In this document: positions 11,684 through 45,466 of the stretch, in pieces
Layout of the letters: each line of letters opens with the position of its first letter
How positions within the stretch are numbered: the stretch's first letter is position 1
Source of the DNA: an uncultured Lachnospiraceae bacterium
GTDB taxonomy: Bacteria; Bacillota; Clostridia; Oscillospirales; CAG-272
Direction of reading: 5' to 3'
DNA: 58,227 bases
Assembly (NCBI GenBank): GCA_964472845.1
Contig: CAYYND010000001.1
Span: 5,427-63,653 of the forward strand
Position numbers and translations under genes: made by a program
The notes under the pieces: model-generated
Seen by the model: the letters and a program-made list of their open reading frames with translations, nothing else
Database searches by the model: none
Told to the model about the DNA's origin: nothing

Positions 11684-13333
11684 TTATTTTTTGAAGCTGT
11701 CGCGCAGACCGACTATGCGGTTAAATGTGCTTTCGTGCTTTGTGTCCTTGCAGAAATATCCCACACGGACGAATTGGAAACGCTCTCCGTCAGCGGCATC
11801 CGCCAACGCAGGCTCTATCTTGCAGCCTTCAAGCTTTATTGCAGAATTGGGATTGAGGTGGTCGTTGTATTCACTGCTCGGAACCGTACGCATATCTCTT
11901 TCGGAGAACAGAGGCTCATAGAGCATAACTGTCGCTTCCTTGGCGTATTTTGCACTTAACCAATGGATAGTGCCCTTGACCTTGCGGTCGGTCGGGTTCC
12001 CGTTACGTACCTCAAGATCGGCAGTACAACGGATCTCGGTCACATTGCCCTCGGCATCCTGTATGACCTCTTCGCATTTTATGATATATGCGCCCATAAG
12101 ACGAACCTCGGCACCCGGCTTGAGCCTGAAGAACTTCGGAGGCGGAACGAGCGCGAAGTCCTCGCGGTCGATATAGATCTCGCGCGTGAAGGGAAGTGCC
12201 CTCGTACCCGATCCTTCCTTGGAAGGATTGTTGGGGAGATCAAAGTACTCTTCTTTGTCTTCGGGATAGTTGGTTACTACCACTTTGACGGGATCAAGTA
12301 TTGCTATCCTTCTGTCTGCGTCTGAGTTGAGCTCCTCGCGGATGCAGGATTCAAGCATTTCTATATCAACAAGGCTGTCTGCCTTTGAAACACCCGCACG
12401 TTTGACAAACTCAAATATCGACGTGGGGGTATATCCGCGTCTGCGAAGCGCGCAGAGCGTCGGAAGTCTGGGGTCGTCCCAACCGTCAACAAGCTCGTTT
12501 TCTACGAGATAGCGCAGATATCTCTTGCTCATTACCGTGTTGGTAACATTCAGACGCGCAAACTCTCTTTGCTTCGGGCGAGGATCAAATCCGATGTTCT
12601 CGATGACCCAATCATAAAGCGGACGGTGATTTTCAAACTCAAGCGAGCAGAGCGAGTGCGTTATGCCTTCGAGAGCGTCCTGTATGGGATGTGCAAAGTC
12701 ATAGAGCGGGTAGATGCACCATTTGTCGCCCTGACGGTGATGCGAAACGTGAACGATTCTGTAAATTGCGGGGTCTCGCATATTCATATTGGGAGATGCC
12801 ATATCGATCTTGGCACGGAGCGTTTTGCTTCCGTCCGGAAATTCTCCGTTCTTCATTCTCTCGAAAAGCTCAAGGTTCTCTTCAACGGAGCGATCACGAT
12901 ACGGGCTGTTCTTGCCGGGCTCGGTAAGCGTCCCTCTGTACTCACGAAGCTCGTCCGCGGTAAGATCGCAAACGTACGCCTTGCCCTCTTTTATAAGCTT
13001 TATTGCGTATTCATAGCATTTGTCAAAATAGTCCGATCCGTAGAAGATGCCGCCGCTCGGAACGGCACCGAGCCAACAAAGATCCTTGTAGATGGACTCA
13101 ACGTATTCGTTGTCCTCTTTGGACGGGTTGGTATCGTCATAGCGGAGATTGAAGAGCCCTCCGTACTTTTTGGCTGTTTCAAAGTTTATCCATATAGCTT
13201 TTGCGGAGCCTATATGAAGGTAACCGTTGGGCTCCGGGGGGAAGCGCGTGTGTATCTTCAGCTCGGGATTTTCCGCGAGATCCGCGTCGATTATATCGTG
13301 TATAAAGTTGCTGTTGCTTTCTTCGTATGCCAT
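11684..13333 (-). CDS. glnS: glutamine--tRNA ligase
   Basis: FIHDIIDADL...HTRFPPEPNGYLHIGSAKA (HIGH motif) and VMSKR (KMSKS motif) in GlnRS-specific context. I chose the ATG at 13333, behind aaagga, over the TTG at 13351. Confidence 0.9.
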   Translation of the reverse strand: MAYEESNSNFIHDIIDADLAENPELKIHTRFPPEPNGYLHIGSAKAIWINFETAKKYGGLFNLRYDDTNPSKEDNEYVESIYKDLCWLGAVPSGGIFYGSDYFDKCYEYAIKLIKEGKAYVCDLTADELREYRGTLTEPGKNSPYRDRSVEENLELFERMKNGEFPDGSKTLRAKIDMASPNMNMRDPAIYRIVHVSHHRQGDKWCIYPLYDFAHPIQDALEGITHSLCSLEFENHRPLYDWVIENIGFDPRPKQREFARLNVTNTVMSKRYLRYLVENELVDGWDDPRLPTLCALRRRGYTPTSIFEFVKRAGVSKADSLVDIEMLESCIREELNSDADRRIAILDPVKVVVTNYPEDKEEYFDLPNNPSKEGSGTRALPFTREIYIDREDFALVPPPKFFRLKPGAEVRLMGAYIIKCEEVIQDAEGNVTEIRCTADLEVRNGNPTDRKVKGTIHWLSAKYAKEATVMLYEPLFSERDMRTVPSSEYNDHLNPNSAIKLEGCKIEPALADAADGERFQFVRVGYFCKDTKHESTFNRIVGLRDSFKK

Positions 13334-13381
13334 AGCATTGATTCCTTTCAATTTTCGGTCGTCCGATAATTTTTCTTCAGC

Positions 13382-15076
13382 TCAGAGTGTATTCAGCATA
13401 TCGTCCATTCTCTGAACTACCTTGTCTTTACCTATGATCTGCATTACGGTGTAAAGATCGGGAGCGTTGAGCTTGCCCGTGACCGCAACACGAAGGAACA
13501 TACTGATATCCGCTATACTGCCTTTGAAGGCACTCGGATCGTTTTTGTATGCCTTCATATCCAATGCAAAGCCGAGCGACTCGGCTACCGTTTTGATCTT
13601 TTCAAACCAGGTATTCATATCATCGGCGGGATCATATGTGCTTAAAAATCCTTCGATCGCGGATCTTATATCAGAGGCGTCAAAGCGTGCAAGCTCAGCA
13701 TTTGCCGACTCCTCGATCTGATAAAATCTGTCAAAGAAAAATCCCATATAAGGCTTTGCGTCTGTCCACACGGCAAGATCCTTGCGAGGCTTTTTGCCGC
13801 CTCTGCCGATGGCGAAGACCTTTTTGGCAAGCGTTTCGTTGTTTATCAACTCGTTTGCAAATTCCGCATCAAATTCCTTCGCAAAAGCCGTTACCTTCTC
13901 GTAAACCTCATCGGCAGTCATACGAGAGATGACGTTCTTTGAAACGTCGTTGAGCTTGTTGAAGTCAAAGAGACATCCTGATGCCGACATTTTTTTGATG
14001 CTGAACGGGAAATCGGTGTACGCCTTGGTCGGATTTTGCATATGCCACTCCTCATAGTTTGAGTTGAGAAGTGTCATAATATATTCGCAAACACATTCGG
14101 GTGCGTATCCCATACGCTTGTAATCATCCATATTGGCACCCATATCGCGCTTGGAAAGCTTCTTCTTGTTTCCGTTTTCGTCAAGTCGCATTATCTGCGC
14201 GATGTGCATATATTTCGGGAGCTTGAATCCGAGATATTGGAAAAGCTGAATGTGCTTTGCAAGACTTGGCAACCATTCCTCGCCTCTTATTACGTGCGTC
14301 GTTCCCATAAGGTGATCGTCTACCGCGTGTGCAAAGTGGTAGGTAGGGATCCCGTCGCTCTTGAGAAGCACAAAATCCTCGTCATTCTCGGGGATCTCAA
14401 GCTTGCCTTTGACAAGATCCGTAAACGGGATCTTCTTCTCGGGATCTCCGTTTGAGAGTATGCGAAGTACGAAGGGATTGCCCGCTTTGAGGTTTTCCTC
14501 GACCTTTTCGAGGGTGAACTGCCTCTGCTTTTGCAGCTCCTCTTTCTGCTTTGATGCGTCCTCGTGCCAATCCTTGGCTTTTATCTCGGCTTTTTTGTCT
14601 ACCGCCGCAAGCGCCTCAAGCTCTTCCTTGGTCGTAAAGCAGGGATAAGCAAGCCCCCTCGCTACGAGATCCTTTGCATAAACGTGATATATCGAGCCGC
14701 GAAGGCTCTGCTTGTACGGACCGTAGATACCGTGATCGCTTATCTTTCCGTCCTCGCCGAGGATTGCTCCCTCATCGAAACATATGCCGTAATTTGCAAG
14801 CGTTTTGATGAGCCCTTCAGCCGCTCCCGGAACCTCGCGCTTGGCGTCGGTATCCTCAATACGGAGATAAAATACGCCTCCGCTTTGATGCGCGAGTCGC
14901 TCTCCTACGGTGGTGGGGAAGAGTCCGCCGAAATGCACGAATCCCGTAGGGCTCGGCGCAAATCTCGTTACCTTAGCTCCCTCGGGAAGCGAACGCGGCG
15001 GAAATCTCAGTTCAAGCTCTGACGGTGTCTCCGTTACGTTCGGAAACAGCAAGTCCGCAAGATATTTGTAGTCCAT
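13382..15076 (-). CDS. gltX: glutamate--tRNA ligase (long form)
   Basis: VTRFAPSPTGFVHFGG (HIGH variant), LRIEDTD and KLSKR motifs. I chose the ATG at 15076 (MDYKYLADLL), behind aaagga. Confidence 0.85.
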   Translation of the reverse strand: MDYKYLADLLFPNVTETPSELELRFPPRSLPEGAKVTRFAPSPTGFVHFGGLFPTTVGERLAHQSGGVFYLRIEDTDAKREVPGAAEGLIKTLANYGICFDEGAILGEDGKISDHGIYGPYKQSLRGSIYHVYAKDLVARGLAYPCFTTKEELEALAAVDKKAEIKAKDWHEDASKQKEELQKQRQFTLEKVEENLKAGNPFVLRILSNGDPEKKIPFTDLVKGKLEIPENDEDFVLLKSDGIPTYHFAHAVDDHLMGTTHVIRGEEWLPSLAKHIQLFQYLGFKLPKYMHIAQIMRLDENGNKKKLSKRDMGANMDDYKRMGYAPECVCEYIMTLLNSNYEEWHMQNPTKAYTDFPFSIKKMSASGCLFDFNKLNDVSKNVISRMTADEVYEKVTAFAKEFDAEFANELINNETLAKKVFAIGRGGKKPRKDLAVWTDAKPYMGFFFDRFYQIEESANAELARFDASDIRSAIEGFLSTYDPADDMNTWFEKIKTVAESLGFALDMKAYKNDPSAFKGSIADISMFLRVAVTGKLNAPDLYTVMQIIGKDKVVQRMDDMLNTL

Positions 15077-15206
15077 ATCTGTATATCCTTTCTGTCTGTG
15101 TGTAATGTGCGTTATCCTTTTAATGTATTTTAGCGATCGATTTACATATATAATCAATTATATCACAAAGAAGACATATTGTCCATAGATTTTTTGAAAA
15201 AACAGC

Positions 15207-15294: not shown

Positions 15295-16890
15295 TCAGTT
15301 AAAGTTACCCTCGAGCTTAGGCTGGAGTTTTTTGATAGCGCTTGTGATCGTGCTTGCGCTCAGTTTTGCGTCTCTGGTCCAGGAAGATGACTGATTGTTC
15401 TTAACGGCATTTCTGAAGGTTACCTGCTTGGATCCGAGATCCTTGTCGAATATACGACCGATATCGAACGAGAGGTTACCTCTGATGATGTCGAACATAT
15501 GAGCGGATACATCATCCTTGGAGTATCTGAGCTTATAGAGGGTCTCGAAGATAACGGGAGTGAGTGTTCTGTAAGAAGCGGAAGCGAGTGCTTCAAGAAC
15601 CGCGGCGCCCATCTCGATCGTTCCCTCAACCTTTGCGTAAACGGGAAGTCCGTAAAGTGTTATGGGGTTACCCATAATGGTTACGTAAGGTGTATTTTCA
15701 TCGTATGTTGGGCAAGGAAGGATGGAGTAAGATCCGGCAAGATCTTTGTTTGATTCAAAAACCTTGAAGGATACTCTTGCACGGTCTATGCAGAAGAGGA
15801 GCTTCTCATCTCTGAAGTTAGCCTGATGCCATACGTCGGATGTGTATATACCGTAATCTGTTTCGTGGAGAAGTGTATTGAGCTTTTCAAGTGTGTTCTT
15901 GATCTGCTCACTTGCAAATTTATCCGAAACCTTAAGATTTCCGCTTGAATCCTTTTCAACAAGGAGTGCGCCTGTTCCGTAGAACCAGGGGTCGGTGTGG
16001 ATTCCGCTCGTCATATAGCCGAATATATCGCTTTCGCCTTCCTTAGCGGCAGACTTTTCTCCGTTACCGTCTACATCTCTGTAAACGCTCTGGCAGTATT
16101 CTATAAATTTGTCGTATGTCCACTGACGGGATTCAACGAGTGTCTGGGGATGAGGCATATCTTTGTGGAATTCATCAAGCAGTTTGTCGTTGACAAAGCA
16201 TGTATACATCATATACAGCGCATTGGGGGAGATATCACCCGATGCAAAGTAGAGCTTTCCTTTTACGGTCGTCTCTTGAATAAGGCTGGAAGGCCACCAA
16301 GGTTTATCAAAATTTATGTGGCTGCAATCCTCGGAGTTGAGGTTGTAGAGATAGCCCCTTGTTGCACATACGGCGGTCGTACGGGAATAGCTTGCGATAG
16401 CATCATATGATCTTTCGCCGTTTACCGCTGCTTTTACCTTATCGGCAAATTCATCGACATAATCCGCATCACCGTTCTGGTATTGGAATTCGATCTTTAC
16501 GCCGAGACGTTCTTCAACTGTCTTTATACGGTTGTAAAGTGCTTTGAGCGTGATGTTGGAACTGTCATAATCTTCTTCAACGCCGAATTCGGGGTGTTCA
16601 ACATCTTTCCAAGCGAGGAAAGTGAATGTCTTGTCACCAAAGTCGAGGTTGTCGGGAAGATCGTCCAGAAGGTAACCGTCTTTATCGTGGTCTTCATCGG
16701 GCGTACTACTCGAATCGTCTCCACCGACTGAGCCGATGTCTGCGGGATCGTTCGTAGCTTCGGGACCTTTGGTCTGATTATCGGATTCATCGGGAGTCTC
16801 GGGATCCTTGACGCAGGCAACAAAGCACGAAAGCATCATGAGGGCTACGAGAGCCAAGCATAAAATTTTGGTAAATGTTTTCTTTGCCAT
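15295..16890 (-). CDS. extracellular solute-binding lipoprotein (ABC transporter family 1 SBP, large LipO-like type). No cognate permease genes are adjacent.
   Basis: Signal peptide with lipobox LSCFVAC, a Ser/Asp/Thr-rich linker, then about 470 aa with SBP-like composition. Confidence 0.65.
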   Translation of the reverse strand: MAKKTFTKILCLALVALMMLSCFVACVKDPETPDESDNQTKGPEATNDPADIGSVGGDDSSSTPDEDHDKDGYLLDDLPDNLDFGDKTFTFLAWKDVEHPEFGVEEDYDSSNITLKALYNRIKTVEERLGVKIEFQYQNGDADYVDEFADKVKAAVNGERSYDAIASYSRTTAVCATRGYLYNLNSEDCSHINFDKPWWPSSLIQETTVKGKLYFASGDISPNALYMMYTCFVNDKLLDEFHKDMPHPQTLVESRQWTYDKFIEYCQSVYRDVDGNGEKSAAKEGESDIFGYMTSGIHTDPWFYGTGALLVEKDSSGNLKVSDKFASEQIKNTLEKLNTLLHETDYGIYTSDVWHQANFRDEKLLFCIDRARVSFKVFESNKDLAGSYSILPCPTYDENTPYVTIMGNPITLYGLPVYAKVEGTIEMGAAVLEALASASYRTLTPVIFETLYKLRYSKDDVSAHMFDIIRGNLSFDIGRIFDKDLGSKQVTFRNAVKNNQSSSWTRDAKLSASTITSAIKKLQPKLEGNFN

Positions 16891-33436: not shown

Positions 33437-33465
33437 TTGACAAAATTGTGTTTGAATGGTATAAT
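33437..33465 (+). promoter_or_regulatory. consensus extended -10 sigma-A promoter of the CaCA genes
   Basis: ttgaca-N17-tataat with TGg immediately upstream of the -10. About 100-nt leader before the ATG at 33569. Confidence 0.7.
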
Positions 33466-33568
33466 TACAAGCAAATATGATCTATTTGTATATCTAACAG
33501 CTTTGCGTGGGGCTGTCTATTTGTTTTTGCCTTTCGCGCGGCTTTATTTTTTATCGGAGGTGTTTTTG

Positions 33569-34561
33569 ATGGAATATGTATTGCTTATCGTGGGCTTTGC
33601 ACTTTTGATCAAAGGAGCCGATCTGTTTGTCGACGGAAGCTCGGCTATTGCCAAGCTTTTAAAGGTGCCGTCGATCATTATAGGTCTTACCGTTGTTGCG
33701 CTCGGGACGAGCCTTCCCGAGGCTTCTATAAGCATCAATGCCGCGATCCTGGGGCAGAACAGCTTGGCACTCAGCAATGTTCTCGGCTCAAATATCCTTA
33801 ATCTTCTCGTCGTTCTGGGCGCAAGTGCGTTGCTTTGCCCCGTTCGTGCCGGCGACGGTGTCATAAAGAAGGAGATACCATACAATATTCTGATAACCGC
33901 GGTGCTGTTTGTGTGCCTTATTTGCGGTATGACGACAGACAGCGAAAACGTGTGGGCGGCTGTCGTAGGTCAAGAGTCTGCCTTTACGCTCGGACGCATC
34001 TGCGGAATTATTCTGCTTCTGCTTTTTGCTTTCTATCTCTTTATGCAGATAAAAGGCGCGCTCAAGGCAAGAGAGGCGAATCGTGATCTCGATGGTGCGG
34101 ACGACGGCAAGAAGATCTCGCTTTGGAAGTCATTGATATTTATCGTTATCGGTGCCGTTGCCATAATTTTCGGCGGCGATATCGTTGTTGACAGCGCATC
34201 AAAGATAGCCGAGACCCTGGGAATGAGCGAAACTCTGATCGGACTTACCATAGTTTCTATGGGAACATCTCTGCCCGAGCTCGTTACCTCGGTGGTTGCC
34301 GCAAGGAAGGGCGAGAGCGATCTCGCGCTCGGAAACGCTATCGGCTCATCAATATTCAATATCCTGTTTATTCTCGGTGCAAGCGCGGCAATATCTCCGA
34401 TCACGGTCGGAGTCTCGGCAATATACGATACGCTTATTCTGATAGTCTTTAGCCTGCTTACGTGGGTATTTGCCGCAACGAAAAAGAAGATCTCACGTAC
34501 CGAGGGTGGTATTATGCTTCTTGCATACGCCGCATATCTTGCGTATATCATTATAAGATAA
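33569..34561 (+). CDS. calcium/cation antiporter (CaCA family, YrbG-like), copy 1
   Basis: The two alpha-repeats GLTVVALGTSLPEA and GLTIVSMGTSLPELV are diagnostic. ATG behind ggaggtg. Confidence 0.88.
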   Translation: MEYVLLIVGFALLIKGADLFVDGSSAIAKLLKVPSIIIGLTVVALGTSLPEASISINAAILGQNSLALSNVLGSNILNLLVVLGASALLCPVRAGDGVIKKEIPYNILITAVLFVCLICGMTTDSENVWAAVVGQESAFTLGRICGIILLLLFAFYLFMQIKGALKAREANRDLDGADDGKKISLWKSLIFIVIGAVAIIFGGDIVVDSASKIAETLGMSETLIGLTIVSMGTSLPELVTSVVAARKGESDLALGNAIGSSIFNILFILGASAAISPITVGVSAIYDTLILIVFSLLTWVFAATKKKISRTEGGIMLLAYAAYLAYIIIR

Positions 34562-34621
34562 ATATATTTTAATGTTAAAACGAAAGGAAGCCTTTTGTAA
34601 TTAAGGCTTAAGGTGACAGCT

Positions 34622-35617
34622 ATGGAATATGTATGGTTGATCGTCGGCTTCGTGCTTCTGATCAAGGGAGCGGATTTCTTTGTTGACGGAAGCTCGGATA
34701 TAGCAAAATTTTTCAAGGTACCGTCGATAATCATAGGGCTGACGATAGTTGCCTTCGGCACGAGTATGCCCGAGGCGTCGGTCAGTATCAATGCCGCTAT
34801 CGCGGGCGCTAACGACATTGCCGTCAGCAATGTTCTCGGTTCAAATATTTTCAATCTTCTCGTCGTGCTCGGCGCGAGCGCTTTGCTTTGTCCCGTAAAG
34901 GTACATAGCGGCTCGGTAAAAAAAGAATTTCCTTTCTCGATACTTATCACCGTCGTGCTCGCAGTGCTTTTGGCTGTCGGATATACCGCGGTAACTCCCG
35001 TCGGTTCTGAGACGAGTATATTTGACAACATCGCAAGCGGCAATGCGGCATTCGTGCTTGGACGTATCGGCGGAATAGTGCTTTTGGCACTGTTTGCATT
35101 CTATATGTTCTGGCAGATCAGAGATGCGCTTAAGGCAAGACAAGAGGATAACGCCACGGAGCAAGAGCATATATCTATCGTCAAGGCGATAATAATGATA
35201 GTGGGCGGCGCGGTCGCTATCATATTCGGCGGAAATCTCGTCGTAGACAGCGCAAAAACCATCGCTTCAAATTTCGGTATGAGTGACACCTTGATCGGAC
35301 TTACGATAGTTGCTATCGGAACCTCGCTTCCCGAGCTCGTTACCTCAATGGTAGCCGCTCGCAAGGGAGAGAGCGACATCGCACTCGGCAACGTAATAGG
35401 CTCGAACATATTCAACATCATATTCATTTTGGGTATAAGCTCAGCTATTTTGCCCATCACGGTGGATATCCTCGCCTTATACGATACGCTCATACTTATT
35501 GCCGTAAGCATCGTGTGCCTCATCTTTGCAAGAACTAAGCATAAGGTGTCGCGCATCGAGGGACTTATAATGGTTCTTATGTACGTTGCTTATTCCGCAT
35601 ACATAATCATAAGATGA
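34622..35617 (+). CDS. calcium/cation antiporter (CaCA family), copy 2 (tandem paralog)
   Basis: GLTIVAFGTSMPEA and GLTIVAIGTSLPELV. The N-terminal ~120 aa are highly similar by eye to copy 1. Confidence 0.88.
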   Translation: MEYVWLIVGFVLLIKGADFFVDGSSDIAKFFKVPSIIIGLTIVAFGTSMPEASVSINAAIAGANDIAVSNVLGSNIFNLLVVLGASALLCPVKVHSGSVKKEFPFSILITVVLAVLLAVGYTAVTPVGSETSIFDNIASGNAAFVLGRIGGIVLLALFAFYMFWQIRDALKARQEDNATEQEHISIVKAIIMIVGGAVAIIFGGNLVVDSAKTIASNFGMSDTLIGLTIVAIGTSLPELVTSMVAARKGESDIALGNVIGSNIFNIIFILGISSAILPITVDILALYDTLILIAVSIVCLIFARTKHKVSRIEGLIMVLMYVAYSAYIIIR

Positions 35618-35703: not shown

Positions 35704-36399
35704 TCATACCCCGTATTTTATTTTGATCCTTTGAAGTTTATCTCCAAACGGCTTTGAAAGGCAGAGCAAAAACAGGAAATTTGAGACCGTATAAAGTGCC
35801 GTATGAGGCAGTGCGGTTATTATTGCCGAAAGATACAGAGCCGTGTCAAACCCGTCGTTATACCACAGTACCGTCCATACATCCATTATTAACGAGAAGG
35901 CGATCCCCGAAAGGACACCGAATATCAACAAAAACAGCTTGCTTTTTTTCAGCGGTTTTGCGAGCGCTCCGGCGGCAAGCCCGATAAGCCCCCAGGAAAG
36001 CATCTGAAACGGAGTCCAAGGTCCTTGCCTGAAATAAAAATTCGATATAAGCGCCGAAAAAGCTCCCACGGCAAATCCCGCTTCGCCACCGAGATATATG
36101 GCGGTTATCACGGTCAGCGCCGTTACGGGCTTGAAAAACGGTATGAAGCGTCCCGCGACGGATAATGCGGTCATAATCGAAACTATAACTGTCCTTCGTG
36201 TTCCGATCTCTTTCTTTTCAAATCCGATCACAAACAGGATGATCGTAAGAATGGCTATAAAGAGCGACACAAAAAGATGCTTTTTTTCGTCGAAAACGAG
36301 AGTGCCCATAACTGCCGCAGAGGGGATCATTATAAGCGGTACAAGTATTTTAAGGGCTTTTCGGACACCGTGGCTCTTAATTACCGTCATTGCCGTCAT
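35704..36399 (-). CDS. ECF transporter S component (substrate-binding integral membrane protein). I cannot assign the family by eye.
   Basis: 231 aa with about 6 TM segments. It is the last gene of the ECF module and overlaps the ATPase gene by 23 nt. Confidence 0.6.
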   Translation of the reverse strand: MTAMTVIKSHGVRKALKILVPLIMIPSAAVMGTLVFDEKKHLFVSLFIAILTIILFVIGFEKKEIGTRRTVIVSIMTALSVAGRFIPFFKPVTALTVITAIYLGGEAGFAVGAFSALISNFYFRQGPWTPFQMLSWGLIGLAAGALAKPLKKSKLFLLIFGVLSGIAFSLIMDVWTVLWYNDGFDTALYLSAIITALPHTALYTVSNFLFLLCLSKPFGDKLQRIKIKYGV

Positions 36400-38020
36400 C
36401 GCCTCGCTTTCTCGGACCGTTTTCTCTGCAAAGCTTTGCTATATCCTCCACCGTTACCGCATTTTCAAAATGTCCTTTTGCAATACGTGCCGCGGATGTA
36501 GTATAGAAGCAGTTTGCCGAGAAGAACTCGCGCGGAGTACCGCAGGAAACGGTATTGCCGCGGAAGAAGAGGGCACATCTGTCAGCGCAAGACGCGGCAA
36601 ATTCCACATCGTGAGTTACCGCGAGTACCGTCACACCGTCAGCCTTAAGCTTTCGGAGTATGTCTGTAAGAGCTCTCTTCTTTTCCGAATCAAGCCCCTT
36701 TGTCGGCTCGTCCAAGAGCAACAGCCGGGGGCTCGTTGCAAGCACTTTGGCGAGAGCCAGAAGCTGTTGCTCTCCGCCCGAAAGATCGTATGGATGCTTT
36801 TCGAGTAGATGTGAGAGCTCGAAGGGAAGTGAGCTTGCGTCCGCGTGCGCGTCTTCAAGCTCCTCTCGGACGGAGTTGCAAAGAAACACATTCTGCACAT
36901 CCTGCGGAAGCAGTGCAAGACAATTTCGGTACAGCGACTGTCCCGTGTATTCCTTGAGTCGCTTTCCCAATACGCGAATCTGACCGCTGTATATTTTTCG
37001 TATACCCGATGCACAGGAAAGTGCCGTCGTTTTGCCTGAGCCGTTTCCGCCGAGGATGCAGAATATCTCACCCTCGTATATAGTGAGATCCAATCCCTTC
37101 AGCACGTCGGGCGCGTTTTTTTCGTAACGAAAATATACATTTTTGAATTCGAGTGCCGTGCTTTCACTGTGCACATAGGGGGGGCACGGTAGGCTTGCGA
37201 TATGGTTTGAATATTCTGTCTCGATAAATCTTCTGCCCTCGCCTACCGTCAGCGGACATTCAGCTCTTGATCCGAGCAAGCGATACAGCCTTGCCGCCGT
37301 CGGCATAGCAGCAAGGAGCGGACTGCTATCCGATAAGCTTGATATAACATTGCGAGGCTTGCCGTCACCGATGAGGGCTCCGCCGTCCATTACGAGCAGT
37401 CGGTCGCACATGGGGATAAGCTCCTCGAGACGGTGCTCTGCAATGATAACGGTCAGCGAAAGATCACGGTTGAGCTTTTTTACCGTGCTTAAAAAATCCG
37501 AGGTCGCGATAGGGTCGAGCTGAGAGGTCGGCTCGTCAAGAATAAGGATATCCGGATCCATCACCATAACGGCGGCGAGATTTAAAAGCTGTTTTTGACC
37601 GCCCGATAGCGTTGAAACGTCGCGCTCGAACCAATCTTCAATGCCGAAGTATGATGCCATCTCGGCAACTCTGCGAGCTATCACGGCTTGAGGCAGCCCG
37701 AGATTTTCGAGTCCGAAGGCAAGCTCAGAATATACTCTGTCGGTCACTATCTGTTCATCGGGTCGCTGTGCGACGAATCCTATACGCTCGGCGGGTATCT
37801 CATTTATTGGTCTTCCGCCGAAAAGTATCTCGCCTTTTTCGCTTCCGCTCGGCGCGATCTCTCGCTTCAAAAGTCTTAGGAGCGTGGATTTTCCGCTTCC
37901 CGTTGCACCGCATAAAACGGTAAATTCTCCCGACGCGACGGAAAAGGAAACATCGTGAACGGCGGCTCGCTCGCACATAGGATATGTGAAACTCAGATCC
38001 TTGACTGTAAGTATTTCCAT
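36377..38020 (-). CDS. ECF transporter fused ATPase (EcfA-EcfA', CbiO-like duplicated ABC domains)
   Basis: Walker A GATGSGKST and GGNGSGKTT. Signatures LSGGQKQ and LSGGEQQ. I chose the ATG at 38020, behind ggagga. Confidence 0.88.
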   Translation of the reverse strand: MEILTVKDLSFTYPMCERAAVHDVSFSVASGEFTVLCGATGSGKSTLLRLLKREIAPSGSEKGEILFGGRPINEIPAERIGFVAQRPDEQIVTDRVYSELAFGLENLGLPQAVIARRVAEMASYFGIEDWFERDVSTLSGGQKQLLNLAAVMVMDPDILILDEPTSQLDPIATSDFLSTVKKLNRDLSLTVIIAEHRLEELIPMCDRLLVMDGGALIGDGKPRNVISSLSDSSPLLAAMPTAARLYRLLGSRAECPLTVGEGRRFIETEYSNHIASLPCPPYVHSESTALEFKNVYFRYEKNAPDVLKGLDLTIYEGEIFCILGGNGSGKTTALSCASGIRKIYSGQIRVLGKRLKEYTGQSLYRNCLALLPQDVQNVFLCNSVREELEDAHADASSLPFELSHLLEKHPYDLSGGEQQLLALAKVLATSPRLLLLDEPTKGLDSEKKRALTDILRKLKADGVTVLAVTHDVEFAASCADRCALFFRGNTVSCGTPREFFSANCFYTTSAARIAKGHFENAVTVEDIAKLCRENGPRKRGDDGNDGN

Positions 38021-38871
38021 TTTAGTCTTTCCTCCGTTTCTGTTATGGTTGGGAGTATTGCGAGAATTCCGTACGCCGCGTATGCTGTTATAGAGAGCGG
38101 CGTCGGATCGGCAGATCTGATGCTCGGATAAAATGTGAAATCGAGCGCACCGAGTGCCATTCCGAGAACTGTCAACGCTGTGCACGAAATGATAATGCCG
38201 AGCATCAGTCCGTCGCAAAGATGAAATCCGAATATCGAATAATATGTCCTTTTGTGTTTTCCGTATGCACGTGCCGCCATACTGTCAGCGGTCGTGATAC
38301 CGTTTTCGAGTGCCCACGTGATAAGAATGGAAAACACGCGAAGGTCGCTTTTTATTTTATCGATCACATTTTCGTCCTTATAGAGCCCGATGGCTCTCTG
38401 GCTTTCGGATATTCGGCGCGCTCTTTCTCCAAAGAGCGGCACATACCTGAGTGCCATTGAAAGGACGAGGGAGAGCCTCGGCGAGAGCTTGCCGAAAACA
38501 TAAAGAAGTTTGTCCCTTGTCATAAGGCTGCTGAATGACCGGAATAGATACAACACCGTTACGATGATGCCTGCATTGACGGCGCCGTAAACGGTCGCCT
38601 CAAGCGTTACGGGGGAATCGTTTATAACAAACAGTACTGTTTTACCGTTGTGAGAGGTTAGCGGATTTATTACTGTCAGAGCCGCGAACAGGGCAAGGTA
38701 AAACATATGGGACGAGAGCGTGTTTCCTTTGTCTCGCAGTAAGAAATACGCAAGCGCTCCTATGCCTCCGATAAGGAGAAGTATGGGATTCTGCGAGAAC
38801 ATCAGAACCAACGTCATCGCAAGAAAATATACAGTTATAACAATTGGATTGCAGTCCTCGAGCCGTCGCAT
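37993..38871 (-). CDS. ecfT: ECF transporter transmembrane (T) component, CbiQ/EcfT family
   Basis: Polytopic. C-terminal coupling-helix motifs ALRYVP...SQRAIG...SMAARAYG. It overlaps the ATPase gene by 28 nt. Confidence 0.8.
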   Translation of the reverse strand: MRRLEDCNPIVITVYFLAMTLVLMFSQNPILLLIGGIGALAYFLLRDKGNTLSSHMFYLALFAALTVINPLTSHNGKTVLFVINDSPVTLEATVYGAVNAGIIVTVLYLFRSFSSLMTRDKLLYVFGKLSPRLSLVLSMALRYVPLFGERARRISESQRAIGLYKDENVIDKIKSDLRVFSILITWALENGITTADSMAARAYGKHKRTYYSIFGFHLCDGLMLGIIISCTALTVLGMALGALDFTFYPSIRSADPTPLSITAYAAYGILAILPTITETEERLKWKYLQSRI

Positions 38872-38909: not shown

Positions 38910-40652
38910 TCATTTCAGATCTTCACCGAGCGCGCAGGTGTACAGCCACTCGATCCTGTCGCCGTCCTTGAGGATATATTCTCCTGCGCCGACGGACGGA
39001 CATTCTCCGTTTACGTAGTACATCCATCCCGAAAGATCTCCGTATTCCGTCTCATAAATGTAAGCGATCCCGGAAATGTACACATAGGTCGCATCTCCGT
39101 CATTTTCAAGCTGTATCTTGTGCTTGCGCGCGGCTTCTGTCAGGACGGTGTATACCGTGTCGCCGTCAGCGATCTCAAATTCGGTGGTATCAAGTATTGT
39201 TCCGTCCTCTGGAATGTGATCGGCACGTCCCGCGACGGTGTCGCATCTGATGGTCAGCGTCACCGTGCCCACAGCGTTTTCCTTTGACGCGCTGTCGCCG
39301 TTGTAATATTCATCAGCCGAGCGTATCTCTATCGAGCAGACGATCAAAAGCGCGATCGCTGTGACGATCAGAACGGCAATGAAATTCTTTATATTACGCT
39401 TTTTTAATGCAAACAGAAGGACAGATACAGCACCGCCAATACAAACGATGATAAGACAGGCTAATGGTTTGTACCCGTGCTCCGAATTGTCGTTTCCGCT
39501 GTCGGTGTCGGTCGGAACGCTCTCGGAACCTTGCGAGGGGGAAATGGGCGTTGTGTCAAGCGATGGATCCTTTTCGGTATCCGAGGGCGAGCGTGTGTCG
39601 GTGATGAGATCATCGTTCGATTCGGTCTTATTCGTGCTCTCGGGGTCAAAGTCCGTATCGATATCGGTGTCGAGTCCCGTGTCGATGCCGTCTGAGAATC
39701 TCGAATCAAGCAGATATAGGGAAGGTCTGCCGCCCGTCATACGCAGATATGATACCGCGGCGCAGAGGACTTGGACCGTTGCCGTTGCGTTGGAAGCACC
39801 GCCCACCTTGTGGCAAAAGCTTCCGTCGGGAAGTCTGTATTTGGCTATTCCGTCGAAAAGCGTGTCGCCGTTTTTGATAAATCTGTCATCCTTTGATGCG
39901 TCGATGCCGAGTGATGACAACGCTATTATTACCTGCGCAGTGCTTTCGGGATTTGCCGAGCCGTAGCCGGCAAAGTCGCCGTCGTCAAGCTGACATTCCG
40001 ACAAAAGGCTCAGCGCATTGTCTATCGCAGATCTGACGTCACTGTCGGAGGAATAAAAGGGCGCGAGTGCCTGTACCGCCATGGCGGTAGCATCAACGTC
40101 ACTGTACTGACCCATAACAGCCCAGCCGCCATCATTTAATCGGAGATCAAGAAGCTTTGCCTTGACCTGCTCCGCCGTATATTTTCCGCCGCTGTAACCG
40201 TTGTTTAAAAGGTGCAGGCCGAATATCCAGCTCATAAGCCCTTGTTCTCCGACGGAATTTTCGAGCGTTGCCGAAATATAGCCGTCGTCGTCGCCCGATG
40301 CCGCAAGGCAGAGCGCATATTTCAGCCTTGATGACGCAGAGTACACCTTGTTGCTTTTTATGTAGGAAAGAAGCGCCGATCTGTATGATGAGAGATCGTA
40401 TTTTTTGTACTGCGCGAGGGAAATAATATACCACTCTGCGGATGTGCCCGCGTTTTTTGTCAGGTATCCGTCTATCCAGGCTTGAACCCCGTCAGCGCTC
40501 GATACGCCTTGATAAGCCAAGATACCGTCGATAAGGTCCTGTGCCTCAACGACGGTATTTTCGGTTGGCTTTTCTGCGTAGCACGGTATCGCTCCGAGCA
40601 ACAGTACGGCAGTAACTAACAGTATTGCCGCCGCAGAAAATTTAGATCTCAT
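38910..40652 (-). CDS. Membrane-tethered surface protein. From N to C: signal peptide, alpha/alpha-toroid (prenyltransferase/terpene-cyclase-like repeats), acidic linker, two TM helices, and a C-terminal DUF4430 (transcobalamin-like beta) domain.
   Basis: Signal peptide ...GAIPCYA. Repeats LNDGGWAV, QLDDGDFAG and RLPDGSFCH. D/T/S-rich linker at aa ~315-392. TM helices at aa ~396-416 and ~423-442, separated by KKRNIKN. The C-terminal GWMYYVNGECPSVGAGEYILKDGDRIEWLY is the DUF4430 signature. Confidence 0.7.
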   Translation of the reverse strand: MRSKFSAAAILLVTAVLLLGAIPCYAEKPTENTVVEAQDLIDGILAYQGVSSADGVQAWIDGYLTKNAGTSAEWYIISLAQYKKYDLSSYRSALLSYIKSNKVYSASSRLKYALCLAASGDDDGYISATLENSVGEQGLMSWIFGLHLLNNGYSGGKYTAEQVKAKLLDLRLNDGGWAVMGQYSDVDATAMAVQALAPFYSSDSDVRSAIDNALSLLSECQLDDGDFAGYGSANPESTAQVIIALSSLGIDASKDDRFIKNGDTLFDGIAKYRLPDGSFCHKVGGASNATATVQVLCAAVSYLRMTGGRPSLYLLDSRFSDGIDTGLDTDIDTDFDPESTNKTESNDDLITDTRSPSDTEKDPSLDTTPISPSQGSESVPTDTDSGNDNSEHGYKPLACLIIVCIGGAVSVLLFALKKRNIKNFIAVLIVTAIALLIVCSIEIRSADEYYNGDSASKENAVGTVTLTIRCDTVAGRADHIPEDGTILDTTEFEIADGDTVYTVLTEAARKHKIQLENDGDATYVYISGIAYIYETEYGDLSGWMYYVNGECPSVGAGEYILKDGDRIEWLYTCALGEDLK

Positions 40653-41454
40653 AACGCTTTTTTGCCGTTAAAGCCAGAGCAAGCGCTCCGCAGAGAGATA
40701 CTGCAAAGAGAACGATGTAAACGAGCGAGTCGTCACCTGTTAAGGGATTTTCAACAACTTTTACTGTAACTGCGGGGGGGACCAGTGTTTGAGTTGCGCT
40801 TGTGGCACTGATAATGAAAGAACCTACGTTATCAATTTTTACCGTGACCTTTCCGTCCTTGTCGGTCTTGAATTCCGTTGCAACACCGTTGACGGTGATG
40901 ACGGCATCCTTTACGGGATCACTAAACTGATTATAGTTTTCATCGAACTTTGCCGCATTGAGCGTCAGAGTGAGCTCGCCGTTCTTTTCGACTTGTGCCG
41001 TGTTGACGTCAAAATAGCAATATGTATCGCTCCAGCTCGAAAGGTCTGTATATATGAAGGCGTTGATAAAGTCGCCGCCCTTTACCTCGTCGTCAAGTCC
41101 CATAGCCATAAGGTTATTGACATAGTAGCCGTATGAACCGCCGTTTGCGACACCCCAGAGCTTTGCAAGAGACATTCCCCACGACCCGGCTGAGGCTTCA
41201 TATCCTGCCGATGCGCCGCCCTCAAACTTTGCTTCGTGAGCACAGTACAGAGCATCGTTTATCGTCAGCTTGGAATCGCCGTCGATATCTGTTATGTTGA
41301 TCTTTTCCTGTGAGAGCACGAGCTTGCCTTTATCGTCGGAGATAGTTACGTAAACATCTGCGGACGAAGAAGTACTGCTCTCTGCGAATACGCCGAGTGT
41401 AAGCGTACTCAAAAGGACTAAGACTGCCAATGTTATAGATAAGATCTTTTTCAT
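40642..41454 (-). CDS. Cell-wall-anchored DUF4430-like protein with an NPLTG sorting signal
   Basis: Signal peptide MKKILSITLAVLVLLSTLTLGVFA. SYGYYVNN...VKGGDFINAFIY is DUF4430-like. A beta-rich second domain follows. The C-terminal NPLTG, hydrophobic stretch and KKRYEI tail form a sortase signal. I chose the ATG at 41454. Confidence 0.65.
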   Translation of the reverse strand: MKKILSITLAVLVLLSTLTLGVFAESSTSSSADVYVTISDDKGKLVLSQEKINITDIDGDSKLTINDALYCAHEAKFEGGASAGYEASAGSWGMSLAKLWGVANGGSYGYYVNNLMAMGLDDEVKGGDFINAFIYTDLSSWSDTYCYFDVNTAQVEKNGELTLTLNAAKFDENYNQFSDPVKDAVITVNGVATEFKTDKDGKVTVKIDNVGSFIISATSATQTLVPPAVTVKVVENPLTGDDSLVYIVLFAVSLCGALALALTAKKRYEI

Positions 41455-41504: not shown

Positions 41505-41834
41505 TCAAATATTCGGCTTTAATGATGAGTATGCTTGAGAAGAGCCGTTCGCCTCTTTCTTTGCTTGAACTTCGGCGTTTTTGCGTGCGGCAAGACGGGC
41601 ACGTTTGGCTCTTGCTCTCTTTTCTCTGTTTCTTTGGCGGCGGTCATCGTTTCTCGGCGGTTTTATGCCGGCGGCTTCAAGCGCGCGAGGCCATGGACCG
41701 AGAAAAGCTTTTATTGCTACGACTTCAGCCTCATCGAAATCGGCTCTTTGCGGATAACGGCTCTCCACAAGCTCGGTGTATTTGATACGCAGAAGGCGAA
41801 TACACTCCTCTTTGCTGTATTTTTTTTGATCCAT
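41505..41834 (-). CDS. Small protein with a very basic C-terminal tail. Function unknown. It is the first ORF after the riboswitch.
   Basis: 109 aa. SD ggagg lies 7 nt upstream. The tail is RNDDRRQRNREKRARAKRARLAARK. Confidence 0.55.
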   Translation of the reverse strand: MDQKKYSKEECIRLLRIKYTELVESRYPQRADFDEAEVVAIKAFLGPWPRALEAAGIKPPRNDDRRQRNREKRARAKRARLAARKNAEVQAKKEANGSSQAYSSLKPNI

Positions 41835-41852
41835 ACGATACCTCCGAAATAC

Positions 41853-41888
41853 AAAAAACGCTTTCCTACCTCAAACGGTAAAAAAGCG
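41853..41888 (-). terminator. Candidate intrinsic terminator (riboswitch expression platform) just upstream of the SD of the 109-aa ORF
   Basis: Minus strand reads cgcttt-ttt-tacc-gtttga-ggta-gg-aaagcg followed by tttttt. The stem is weak and interrupted. Confidence 0.35.
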
Positions 41889-41999
41889 CAGCTATCCTAT
41901 CGGTCGAAAAATGGGCATACTTCACCCATATACCAACGAAAACGGCTACGCTCTTCAAGTCCAAAAACGATCGTGCAAATGCACATTACCTATCGCTGT

Positions 42000-42105
42000 C
42001 TTGGCGAGTATTCCGACTTATGAGACCTGCGTCTCAATTACGGTAATGACGGTTGCGACGGATTTTCACCGAACTTCCCTCTGATCTGCACAAAGCAGAG
42101 CCAAG
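42000..42105 (-). promoter_or_regulatory. Cobalamin riboswitch aptamer (short type without a large peripheral extension)
   Basis: Minus strand reads cttggc...agagggaagttcggtgaaaatccgtcgcaaccgtcattaccgtaa-ttgagacgcaggtctca-taagtcggaatactcgccaag. The AGGGAA..GGTGAAAATCC core, the ACCGTAA element, a short hairpin, a B12-box-like AAGTCGGAATACTCGCC, and a closing cttggc/gccaag P1 are all present. Confidence 0.75.
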
Positions 42106-42170
42106 CTGCGAAAAATATTTAATTTTCATACGTGCTGAGCAAAACGCAAAGCAAGCTTCATCAAGACAGT

Positions 42171-42199
42171 ATTATATCACCTTTTCATACGATTGTCAA
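42171..42199 (-). promoter_or_regulatory. Consensus extended -10 sigma-A promoter driving the riboswitch and operon
   Basis: Minus strand reads ttgaca-N17-tataat, preceded by TGa. Confidence 0.7.
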
Positions 42200-43665: not shown

Positions 43666-43736
43666 GAACCTTTATGATAAAATCATATCTGAAAAAATAC
43701 ATAACATCAAAGTTAAAAAGAAAGGAACTGAAAAGT

Positions 43737-44069
43737 ATGATAAAAAAGACGGGTGGCTTTGAAAAAAGCCTTGAAAATGAAAGCCTTGTGATAAAAATAC
43801 GGGGCGAGATAGACCATCACAGCGCGGTGGACATACGTGGAGACATAGATCGGCTGATATATGAGCTCTCTCCGCGAAGGCTCGTGATGGATCTTTCCGT
43901 AGTGGATTTTATGGACAGCTCCGGGCTGGGGCTCATTATGGGAAGGTATTCGGTTATGTCGGTGCTCGGTGGCGAAACGGTGCTGCGCGATCCCGCACCG
44001 TCAATACTTAAGATCATCAAGCTTGCGGGGCTTGAGAGAATGATAAAGATCGAAAAAAGCAAGAAATAA
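43737..44069 (+). CDS. spoIIAA: anti-sigma F factor antagonist SpoIIAA (STAS domain)
   Basis: LVIKIRGEIDHHSA...VDFMDSSGLGLI (phosphorylatable Ser in DSSG). It precedes spoIIAB-sigF. Confidence 0.88.
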   Translation: MIKKTGGFEKSLENESLVIKIRGEIDHHSAVDIRGDIDRLIYELSPRRLVMDLSVVDFMDSSGLGLIMGRYSVMSVLGGETVLRDPAPSILKIIKLAGLERMIKIEKSKK

Positions 44070-44096
44070 GCCGTGCAACAGAAAGGAAGGCAAAAT

Positions 44097-44573
44097 ATGA
44101 AAAAAAACACTGTAAAAAGAGATATGACCGTGCTTAACAGAGTAAAGCTCGTTATTCCATCGCTGTCCGTAAATGAAGGCTTTGCCCGTGCGGCAGTGGC
44201 GGCATTCTGCGCTCAGATAAATCCTTGCGCCGCTGAGCTTGCGGACATAAAATGTGCGGTCTCCGAGGCGGTCACGAACTGTATCGTTCACGCATATAAA
44301 AATACCCCGGAGGGAATGGGAAACATTACACTGACCGTAAAGCTTTGCGCCGACAGAGTGGTTATTGTCGAGATAAAGGACAGCGGTTGCGGAATCCCCG
44401 ATGTAAAAATGGCAAGGACGCCGCTTTTTACCACAGATGCAGCGGACGAGCGTAGCGGAATGGGATTTACGGTCATGGAAAGCTTTATGGACAGGCTTAG
44501 GGTAAGCTCCAAGGTCGGACGCGGAACCAAGGTCACAATGTACAAGTACCTGAAGGATCAGGAGAGCCTCTGA
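44097..44573 (+). CDS. spoIIAB: anti-sigma F factor SpoIIAB (serine kinase)
   Basis: VSEAVTNCIVHAY (N box) and DSGCGI...ERSGMGFTVM (G boxes). Confidence 0.9.
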   Translation: MKKNTVKRDMTVLNRVKLVIPSLSVNEGFARAAVAAFCAQINPCAAELADIKCAVSEAVTNCIVHAYKNTPEGMGNITLTVKLCADRVVIVEIKDSGCGIPDVKMARTPLFTTDAADERSGMGFTVMESFMDRLRVSSKVGRGTKVTMYKYLKDQESL

Positions 44574-44608
44574 ATACATAACAAGATCCTTATCAGGGAG
44601 GGGAAAAC

Positions 44609-45466
44609 GTGAGCTATTGTGAAAATGAAGTGCACGATCTCGGAGAATATCAAAACAGTGATGCTTGCTTGGAAGCGGAAGAGAGCGGCGTGGCAAAAGA
44701 GACTTCTGCCAAGGATATCGGCAGAGTACGGGATGCAAGTCCGCTTTATGCTAAGAATACCGAGCTCGTAAGACGTGCCGCTGAGGGGGATGAAAAAGCA
44801 CTTGAGGAGCTGGTAATTTCAAATATGGGGCTTGTGCGAAGTATCGCGCGTAAGTTTATTGATCGCGGCACGGACTATGAAGATCTTGTTCAGATAGGTA
44901 TTATGGGGATGCTTAAGGCGGCTGAAAGCTTTGACATTACCAGAGGGACGGTATTTTCAACCTATGCCGTACCTTTGATCGTGGGTGAGATACGCAGGCA
45001 TCTGCGCGATGACGGAATGATAAAGGTCAGCAGACAGTACAAGCGGCTCGGTATGGCGCTCAGCCGTGAGCGGAACCGTATATTAACCGAGGAGGGGCGA
45101 GAACCGCGCATAGAGGAGCTTGCGGCACTCTGCGGCTCGACTCCCGAGGAATGTGCTATGGCGCTTGAGGCGATATCTCCCGTTTCTTCTTTTTCGGACA
45201 CGGTGGGGGGAGACGAGAGTATGACGCTTGAAAGCACACTTGCCGACGCTGACAGCGAGGCGGAGATCGAGCGTATAAACGACCGCCTTGCGCTTAATCA
45301 GGCTATATCCAAAATGCAACCGACATGGAGAAAGATCGTGCTCTTGCGGTATTACAGAGGAAAGACTCAGCAGGAGACGGCGGATCTGCTCGGACTTTCA
45401 CAGGTCAAAGTATCGAGAGAGGAAAAGAAAATTATGGAGTTTTTGCGAGGGGAGCTCGTTGTATAG
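44609..45466 (+). CDS. sigF: RNA polymerase sporulation sigma factor SigF
   Basis: Region 2 is DLVQIGIMGMLKAAESFD...FSTYAVPLIVGEIRRHLRDDGMIKVSR. Region 4 is QQETADLLGLSQVKVSREEKKI. GTG start behind ggagggg. Confidence 0.88.
   Translation: MSYCENEVHDLGEYQNSDACLEAEESGVAKETSAKDIGRVRDASPLYAKNTELVRRAAEGDEKALEELVISNMGLVRSIARKFIDRGTDYEDLVQIGIMGMLKAAESFDITRGTVFSTYAVPLIVGEIRRHLRDDGMIKVSRQYKRLGMALSRERNRILTEEGREPRIEELAALCGSTPEECAMALEAISPVSSFSDTVGGDESMTLESTLADADSEAEIERINDRLALNQAISKMQPTWRKIVLLRYYRGKTQQETADLLGLSQVKVSREEKKIMEFLRGELVV

Follow-up and report, generated by a model that had tools for sequence, protein, structure and literature searches.

What is the role of a bacterial protein that joins, through a hairpin of two membrane helices, the same two folds that make up the vitamin B12 carriers of animals? 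The question is raised by one gene in a stretch of 58,227 nucleotides (nt) from an uncultured Lachnospiraceae bacterium (contig CAYYND010000001.1, positions 5,427 to 63,653 of the forward strand; hereafter "the window"). The gene is an ATG-initiated open reading frame (ORF) of 580 amino acids (aa), identified by ORF calling and translation, and spans positions 38910..40652, stop codon included. An initial annotation had placed it correctly; to this we add the strand, the gene being read from the minus strand. The plus-strand reading of 38910-40652 has stop codons throughout. From the analysis presented below, we consider it probable that the gene encodes a bacterial counterpart of transcobalamin, intrinsic factor and haptocorrin, made as one chain and anchored in the membrane, and that this protein acts as the surface capture subunit of a dedicated CbrT-type energy-coupling factor (ECF) importer for cobamides.

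The protein comprises the following parts, listed from the N-terminus (TM, transmembrane; pLDDT, predicted local distance difference test):

40575..40652, minus strand: signal peptide (aa 1-26), with a putative cleavage site between CYA and EK; family consensus P[VC]xAE
39708..40574, minus strand: alpha/alpha toroid (aa 27-315), from three LxDG[GDS][WF] repeats, the structural model and the fold search
39477..39707, minus strand: Asp/Ser/Thr-rich disordered stalk (aa 316-392), from composition and a pLDDT of about 30
39324..39476, minus strand: two-helix membrane hairpin (aa 393-443), made of TM1, the loop KKRNIKN (aa 417-423) and TM2
38913..39323, minus strand: juxtamembrane spacer with a conserved YY, then an SLBB/DUF4430 beta-grasp domain (aa 444-580), from Pfam and the model

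The N-terminus, which reads MRSK, FSAAAILLVTAVLLLGAI and PCYA followed by EK, has the basic/hydrophobic/small-residue pattern of a Sec signal peptide and a Kyte-Doolittle peak of 2.35. Motifs of the form (L/Q)xDG(G/D/S)(W/F) occur three times in the toroid, at aa 172, 222 and 274. The sequence matches of this region, all weak, are to the squalene-cyclase/prenyltransferase group, and homologues carry precomputed PF13243/PF00432 assignments. Among the 77 residues of the stalk, 17 are Asp, 13 Ser and 12 Thr. The hydrophobic segments of the hairpin reach Kyte-Doolittle peaks of 2.78 and 2.84 and have only KKRNIKN between them. At the C-terminal end, the DUF4430 model (PF14478) matches aa 497-572 with E = 1.8e-19 and 70 bits, against a cut-off of 23.8 bits. 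These data bear out the layout that the initial annotation had read from the letters: a signal peptide at about aa 1-26, repeated toroid motifs, an Asp/Thr/Ser-rich linker of about 80 aa, two hydrophobic helices around KKRNIKN (helical in the AlphaFold2 model as well) and a C-terminal DUF4430 domain.

The AlphaFold2 model, built on a 33-sequence alignment, has a mean pLDDT of 74. Its N-terminal domain (aa 33-306) is nearly all-helical with values mostly between 85 and 98, the stalk (aa 320-392) falls to about 30, and the membrane helices are modelled at 394-415 and 421-440 with values of 66-81. The beta domain has the order strand, strand, helix, two-strand hairpin, strand, strand (strands at 460-470 and 485-495, helix at 500-510, strands at 514-517, 524-527, 542-547 and 566-572). 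When this model was compared with the PDB using Foldseek, ranks 1-13 were held by intrinsic factor, transcobalamins and haptocorrin only. The top match is intrinsic factor (3kq4_A, E = 2.2e-7); the other carriers in these ranks are the transcobalamins 2v3n, 2bb6, 4zrp, 7qbe/f/g and 8ixt and haptocorrin 4kki. The alignments with the B12 carriers extend over some 570-610 columns, indicating that both domains are matched and in the same order, at a sequence identity of 11-14%. Lower ranks cover the toroid only and comprise class II terpene cyclases, prenyltransferase beta subunits and glycosidases. Searches of PDB sequences, with the single sequence or with a profile, returned cyclases and prenyltransferases and no transcobalamin; the transcobalamin link is therefore one drawn from structure comparison only. 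On these grounds the N-terminal domain is, as first proposed, an alpha/alpha toroid, confidently modelled and similar to both the transcobalamin family and the cyclase/prenyltransferase toroids, and the claim that the protein combines the two folds of transcobalamin holds across both domains.

The loop between the membrane helices is almost purely basic throughout the family, which by the positive-inside rule places it in the cytoplasm. Since the toroid, exported by a signal sequence that is either cleaved or left uncleaved, is followed by an even number of membrane helices, namely two, the SLBB domain should lie on the same side as the toroid. Hydropathy and charge thus support the topology suggested from the outset, in which toroid and SLBB would both be extracellular and the basic loop cytoplasmic; neither globular domain is placed in the cytoplasm. 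Independent support for an extracellular toroid comes from two clusters of fusion proteins, P0243 (736 aa) and P0324 (731 aa); here a neighbouring surface protein (described below) has its ectodomain joined straight to the toroid, with no membrane segment in between.

The architecture belongs to a large family. Over 1180 homologues were found in a search of 5.8 billion proteins, and nearly all of the 120 that were listed are 502-661 aa long, with a query coverage of 93-100%. Where they have names, these are solely "DUF4430 domain-containing protein", from metagenome-assembled genomes of Clostridia, Eubacteriales or Tyzzerella. When 1.84 billion cluster representatives were searched with a profile, 3763 matches at E<=1e-30 were obtained, of which the best 150 are essentially all full-length. 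The existence of this full-length homologous family means that the architecture is not a chance product. In contigs of the one-genome-per-species GTDB set, 528 stretches encode a relative. They come from Lachnospiraceae, Oscillospiraceae, Acutalibacteraceae and many Ruminococcus, among them cultured strains of Ruminococcus flavefaciens (FD-1, MA2007, Y1, YL228 and SAb67). The early description of the design as unusual remains apt insofar as it concerns the design itself; as a statement of rarity it fails, with a member encoded in at least 528 species genomes and the family very common among Clostridia of the gut and rumen.

The hairpin is a constant feature of this family. The pattern YK-(TM1)-KKRNxKNF-(TM2)-...YY is present in 33 of 33 aligned sequences, and two hydrophobic segments separate toroid and SLBB in all 267 family proteins examined. 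In 234 of the latter the segments were counted directly upstream of the SLBB motif, and in another 6 the threshold split them into three; the remaining 27 lack the SLBB motif pattern and show the same two segments. Where measured, the loop has about 6 aa, with a mean of 3.1 Lys plus Arg and of 0.02 Asp plus Glu. Geometry and entropy were evaluated on 148 representatives at 50% identity. The spacer from TM2 to SLBB measures 6-18 aa (median 15), whereas the stalk of the toroid, rich in Thr, Ser, Glu, Ala, Pro and Asp, varies from 14 to 178 aa (median 50). This difference suggests that the SLBB domain is pinned near the membrane while the toroid is held on a leash. Entropy amounts to 2.3-2.5 bits in the membrane helices, 2.7 in the signal peptide and 1.7-1.9 in the globular domains. 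The membrane helices are thus no more conserved than the signal peptide, which fits a generic anchoring role. The loop has an entropy of 1.94 bits, with K418, K422 and N423 found in 73-78% of these distant representatives.

Indications as to the ligand come from the surroundings of the gene. From the promoter downstream, the features are:

42171..42199, minus strand: promoter-like site, TTGACA-17-TATAAT with extended TG, matching the consensus at 12/12 positions and some 50 nt ahead of the riboswitch
41986..42119, minus strand: aptamer of a cobalamin riboswitch; RF00174 at 33.7 bits (gathering score 31.5)
41848..41889, minus strand: terminator-like hairpin of 13 pairs with a T tract behind it, downstream of the aptamer and ahead of the first ORF
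41505..41834, minus strand: 109-aa HNH_repeat protein, first ORF of the operon; PF18780, E = 2.4e-6, one repeat; cytoplasmic
40642..41454, minus strand: 270-aa surface protein (up270), whose stop overlaps the ATG of the next gene by 11 nt
38910..40652, minus strand: the transcobalamin-like gene, from ORF, Pfam and model
37993..38871, minus strand: ECF T component, CbiQ family, E = 2.4e-10
36377..38020, minus strand: fused double ECF ATPase A-A', 547 aa, start ATG at 38020; ECF_ATPase_1, 323 bits against a 315-bit cut-off
35704..36399, minus strand: ECF S component; sole PDB sequence match 6FNP_A, E = 1.7e-4, over aa 67-210

The promoter, the riboswitch with its terminator and the overlapping or closely spaced genes are the signals that mark this set as a predicted co-transcribed operon, in which the hairpin at 41848..41889 is likely to form the expression platform of the riboswitch. 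The score of the aptamer in the window is marginal; it is backed by the strong matches to RF00174 (80-94 bits) that relatives carry at the same position of homologous loci. When 27 related loci were scanned, 21 proved to have a B12-class riboswitch (RF00174 or RF01689) upstream and on the same strand. The transcobalamin-like gene and those for T, AA' and S occur together in 72 of 80 related loci. The resemblance of the S component to CbrT is weak, and the 182-residue chain A of 6FNP was taken as CbrT by its length. Before the core that aligns with it (aa 67-210), the S component has an extension (aa 1-66) containing two additional hydrophobic helices, whose centres lie near aa 25 and aa 52. 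This extension is conserved, since homologues align from residue 2-4 on. The initial annotation had mentioned a neighbouring transporter; a B12 riboswitch and a CbrT-like ECF system make a stronger link than it could give.

The gene immediately upstream is a conserved companion of the transcobalamin-like gene. In 77 of 80 loci the two are direct neighbours in this order, and the 11-nt overlap often recurs. Its product, up270, is composed of a signal peptide, an N-terminal domain, an immunoglobulin (Ig)-like beta-sandwich, a sortase-type signal, a membrane helix and a basic tail. The sorting signal reads NPLTGD here and SPKTG, SPETG or NPxTG in homologues, and is followed by a hydrophobic stretch and the basic tail; the LPXTG anchor model (Gram_pos_anchor) is matched by 8 of 32 family members. 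The family numbers about 1095 proteins, mostly called "hypothetical protein", with no Pfam domain. In the AlphaFold2 model (pLDDT 86), an N-terminal alpha/beta domain, the Ig-like sandwich and the C-terminal membrane helix can be distinguished. The secondary-structure order of the N-terminal domain, strand-strand-helix-hairpin-strand-strand, is compatible with a beta-grasp. We considered whether up270 could be a divergent SLBB paralogue and found no support for it: the BLASTP comparison gave E = 0.32 and hhalign a probability of 3.4%, the 50 top Foldseek matches were all Ig-like, and PF14478 matched none of the 32 members scanned. Some genomes have a different arrangement, namely riboswitch, small protein, T, AA', S, 270-aa gene and transcobalamin-like gene, indicating that the last two move as a unit. 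They are fused in three protein clusters, the two mentioned above and P0074.

The last of these clusters, together with an operon of Lactobacillus sakei, bears on the origin of the membrane hairpin. The L. sakei operon, Lsa1836-1840, encodes ECF S, A-A' and T components along with two exported proteins, the transcobalamin alpha-like Lsa1840 and the beta-like Lsa1839. The alpha and beta parts are thus two genes in L. sakei, whereas here they form one polypeptide by way of the membrane hairpin. In P0074 (845 aa), the C-terminal anchor of the partner with its KKKRR tail and the signal peptide of the toroid protein make up a second two-helix hairpin; this fusion may be an artefact of assembly or a frameshift. 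The separate halves in L. sakei, a hairpin created by fusion in P0074 and the variability of the membrane helices all point to a fusion origin. Probably, therefore, the hairpin is the retained joint of an ancient gene fusion, which anchors both domains. The parents would have been a toroid protein with a C-terminal anchor and an SLBB protein with an N-terminal signal-anchor, and the product would keep both halves on a Gram-positive cell, which has no periplasm.

Fold, B12 riboswitch, CbrT-like S component, ECF synteny and a prediction published in 2007 (see below) converge on a role with cobamides, and the capture protein that we propose might work as follows. When intracellular cobamide is low, the riboswitch would permit transcription of the operon. 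The signal peptide would export the toroid, TM1 would stop the transfer, the KKRNxKN loop would remain in the cytoplasm and TM2 would re-export the SLBB domain. The latter would then be held about 15 residues off the membrane, beside the S component, and the toroid would move on its flexible, acidic, Ser/Thr-rich stalk of 14-178 residues. A corrinoid would be bound by SLBB, capped by the toroid as in transcobalamin, and passed to the CbrT-like S component for import at the expense of ATP. The shortest leash would still permit a transcobalamin-like closure, while the longest could reach into the cell wall.

Several observations weigh against this proposal. The L. sakei operon, the sole experimentally studied relative that we found, has been tied to the uptake of heme and not of B12. 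Part of the beta domain is modelled with a pLDDT below 50, and the root-mean-square deviation (rmsd) from transcobalamin in the Foldseek alignments is 14-17 Å, so that the model does not show the closed sandwich of the holo form. By profile, the toroid resembles squalene-hopene cyclase repeats (E = 1.4e-6), and the Pfam family Cobalamin_bind (PF01122) gives no significant match (E = 0.25), which leaves the kinship of the toroid at the level of the fold. No riboswitch reached the gathering score in 6 of the 27 loci scanned (L059, L071, L037 from Ruminococcus flavefaciens, L027, L036 and L042). Finally, the loop of the hairpin equals the globular domains in conservation, which a purely passive anchor would not strictly require.

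If the cobamide role is accepted, the two domains need not close on one molecule. Toroid, sortase-anchored neighbour and SLBB might instead be separate stations that pass the corrinoid through the Gram-positive wall, in the manner of the Isd heme relay and with no sandwich. To this idea, which we find doubtful yet worth serious attention, the geometry lends some weight, the stalk reaching up to 178 aa of Thr/Ser/Glu/Ala/Pro/Asp-rich sequence against the 6-18 aa of the SLBB spacer. A surface protein with a sortase signal and an overlapping coding sequence adjoins the gene in nearly every locus, and a rigid-body superposition of the model on holo-transcobalamin fails. However, stalks of 14 aa are too short for the cell wall and long enough for domain closure, and the folds and their order are those of the transcobalamin sandwich. 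Separated alpha and beta fragments of intrinsic factor reportedly reassemble around cobalamin, in work by Fedosov and co-workers, which favours co-binding. We thus infer that the two domains would more likely act as a clamp on a single B12 molecule.

A different elaboration starts from the conservation of the loop and of the YK and YY motifs beside it, which would be compatible with a specific contact to the transporter. KKRNxKN[FY] and YK/YY might dock on the ECF module or on the two extra N-terminal helices of the S component; indeed the N-terminal extension of the latter could be the docking site for the hairpin. The protein would then be a stable subunit of the importer, its open or closed state being coupled to the toppling of the S component or to ATP hydrolysis. 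We regard this arrangement as rather improbable. Were it true, it would represent the first ECF importer with an integral extracytoplasmic capture subunit, and a living model for the bacterial protein from which transcobalamin and intrinsic factor of animals descend. To our knowledge, the textbook definition has ECF importers operate without a substrate-binding protein.

That the ligand could be heme is suggested by the L. sakei system, where deletion of lsa1836-1840 impaired heme uptake and complementation restored it. Against this, the operon of the window is preceded by a cobalamin riboswitch, as are most related loci by one of the B12 class, the only PDB relative of the S component is CbrT, and no heme-related gene was found within the operon by Pfam and sequence annotation. 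We consequently hold heme to be quite unlikely. Least credible of all, and to our mind very improbable, is that the toroid is an extracellular enzyme or a glycan or isoprenoid binder of the cyclase/prenyltransferase type, with DUF4430 in some other role: its sequence matches are indeed squalene-hopene cyclase, drimenyl and copalyl diphosphate synthases and prenyltransferase beta subunits, and toroid glycoside hydrolases appear among Foldseek ranks 26-47, but the absence of a DxDD motif from the protein and the lack of conservation of its GDDDG (family consensus GSTD, with no conserved acidic cluster in the alignment) make a cyclase activity unlikely, export removes the toroid from prenyl-diphosphate substrates, B12 carriers give the best structural matches and the operon is regulated by B12.

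How does the capture protein that we favour compare with known systems? With the eukaryotic B12 carriers transcobalamin, intrinsic factor and haptocorrin (PF01122 plus PF14478; 2BB5/2BB6, 2PMV/3KQ4 and 4KKI) it shares the order of toroid, then SLBB/DUF4430 with hairpin insert, and in both cases the domains are extracellular. The eukaryotic carriers are soluble and secreted and have a short linker, whereas the present protein is anchored in the membrane with a 77-aa stalk and two membrane helices and, unlike them, is encoded alongside a transporter.

The closest precedent is a prediction. Burroughs, Balaji, Iyer and Aravind (2007; PMC1796856) defined the SLBB superfamily and noted that a hairpin following the helix marks the transcobalamin clade of these domains, a signature that the beta domain of our model shows. 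Bacterial members of this clade are there described as commonly fused to alpha/alpha toroids, on either side, in proteins with signal peptides and sometimes Gram-positive anchors from low-GC Gram-positive hosts. Their genes are reported to share operons with CbiO-like and CbiQ-like ones, in many cases along with a gene for a second surface protein, and a role in B12 scavenging is predicted. These scavengers share with our protein the signal peptide, a toroid N-terminal to SLBB, the CbiO/CbiQ operon, a second anchored surface protein and a low-GC Gram-positive host. A membrane hairpin between the domains is not mentioned in the text of that article, and the second surface protein of our operon is not demonstrably related to SLBB; to the published picture we add the control by a B12 riboswitch and the CbrT-like S component. 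Bacterial B12 scavengers with toroid and SLBB in CbiO/CbiQ operons are, therefore, already known by prediction. A full-text literature search returned no description of the hairpin-split form, a weak negative as most subscription journals lie outside its coverage. As far as we could find, a hairpin-split single chain with a sortase-anchored partner in a riboswitch/CbrT context is undescribed.

Compared with the L. sakei system, the present operon differs not only in the fusion of the two parts but also in what it points to: the deletion phenotype in L. sakei concerns heme uptake, whereas the regulation here points to cobamides. Nor does the L. sakei study describe a sortase-anchored partner, which this operon has. 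The structure 6FNP shows ECF-CbrT, which transports vitamin B12 in Lactobacillus delbrueckii (Santos et al. 2018, PMC5997447). Both systems have ECF T and ATPase modules, and among solved structures CbrT is the nearest to our S component. In ECF-CbrT, however, the ECF module is shared among S components and there is no extracellular capture protein (PMC5997447), while the operon of the window has a dedicated module, fused ATPases, two extra helices in the S component and two surface proteins. In Bacteroides, BtuG and BtuH are surface-exposed B12-binding lipoproteins of the outer membrane that are encoded in B12 transport loci and, as accessory capture proteins, feed a TonB-dependent transporter (PMC8941943). 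Their role is analogous to the one proposed here and their folds are unrelated, BtuG being a beta-propeller and BtuH having a globular B12-binding domain with "no known structural homologs" (PMC8941943). The idea that BtuH might be a DUF4430 protein was dropped, as PMC8941943 mentions neither DUF4430 nor transcobalamin.

Some features of the operon and of its relatives deserve mention in their own right. The 109-aa protein of the first ORF, whose PF18780 match is a "homing endonuclease associated repeat", ends in a highly basic tail, RRQRNREKRARAKRARLAARK, and its N-terminal 60 aa are kept at the head of the operon in 42 of 80 related loci. It would place a module of nucleic-acid-binding type under B12 control inside a transporter operon. 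In Ruminococcus operons (flavefaciens-type), the short adenosylcobalamin (AdoCbl)-II class RF01689 replaces RF00174, with matches at the following positions of the respective loci:

L049, 5853-5928: RF01689
L030, 5896-5971: RF01689
L024, 5793-5868: RF01689
L058, 5876-5951: RF01689
L038, 5847-5922: RF01689

Locus L029 carries a second cobalamin riboswitch (13105-13304, plus strand, 57.7 bits) just downstream of the ECF S gene, which suggests that another B12-regulated gene lies beside the operon. Further RNA matches in related loci are an S-adenosylmethionine (SAM) riboswitch just downstream of the transcobalamin-like gene in L005 (9738-9834, plus strand), a Clostridiales-1 small RNA in L033 (11929-12095, plus strand) and a 6S RNA in L009 (3920-4101, plus strand).

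Elsewhere in the window, two tandem paralogous Na+/Ca2+ exchanger genes (33437-34561 and 34613-35617, both plus strand; PF01699, about 220 bits each) run towards the 3' end of the ECF operon in convergent orientation. At 43674-45466 on the plus strand, pointing away from the riboswitch promoter, are genes for a STAS protein (anti-anti-sigma, SpoIIAA-like) and then a sigma-70-family factor; this segment looks like a sporulation operon of the spoIIA type, which suggests that the host is an endospore-forming Firmicute. Two adjacent genes on the minus strand (11684-13351 and 13382-15157) encode class I aminoacyl-tRNA synthetases of the Glu/Gln type (PF00749), the former with C-terminal domains of the GlnRS/GluRS type and the latter with a different anticodon-binding domain. 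A 531-aa ORF at 15295-16890 (minus strand) has no Pfam match at E<=1e-5.

Competition for B12 among Gram-positive bacteria of the gut and rumen is far less understood than in Bacteroides, with its BtuG and BtuH. If it binds cobamides, the protein described here would be the Firmicute equivalent of the Bacteroides surface capture proteins, and an exception to the rule that ECF transporters do without extracellular binding proteins. The hairpin design would offer a natural example of a two-domain ligand clamp tethered through the membrane, provided that the domains do act as a clamp. Cobamide binding would, in addition, open to experiment the bacterial origin that has been proposed for transcobalamin and intrinsic factor of animals.

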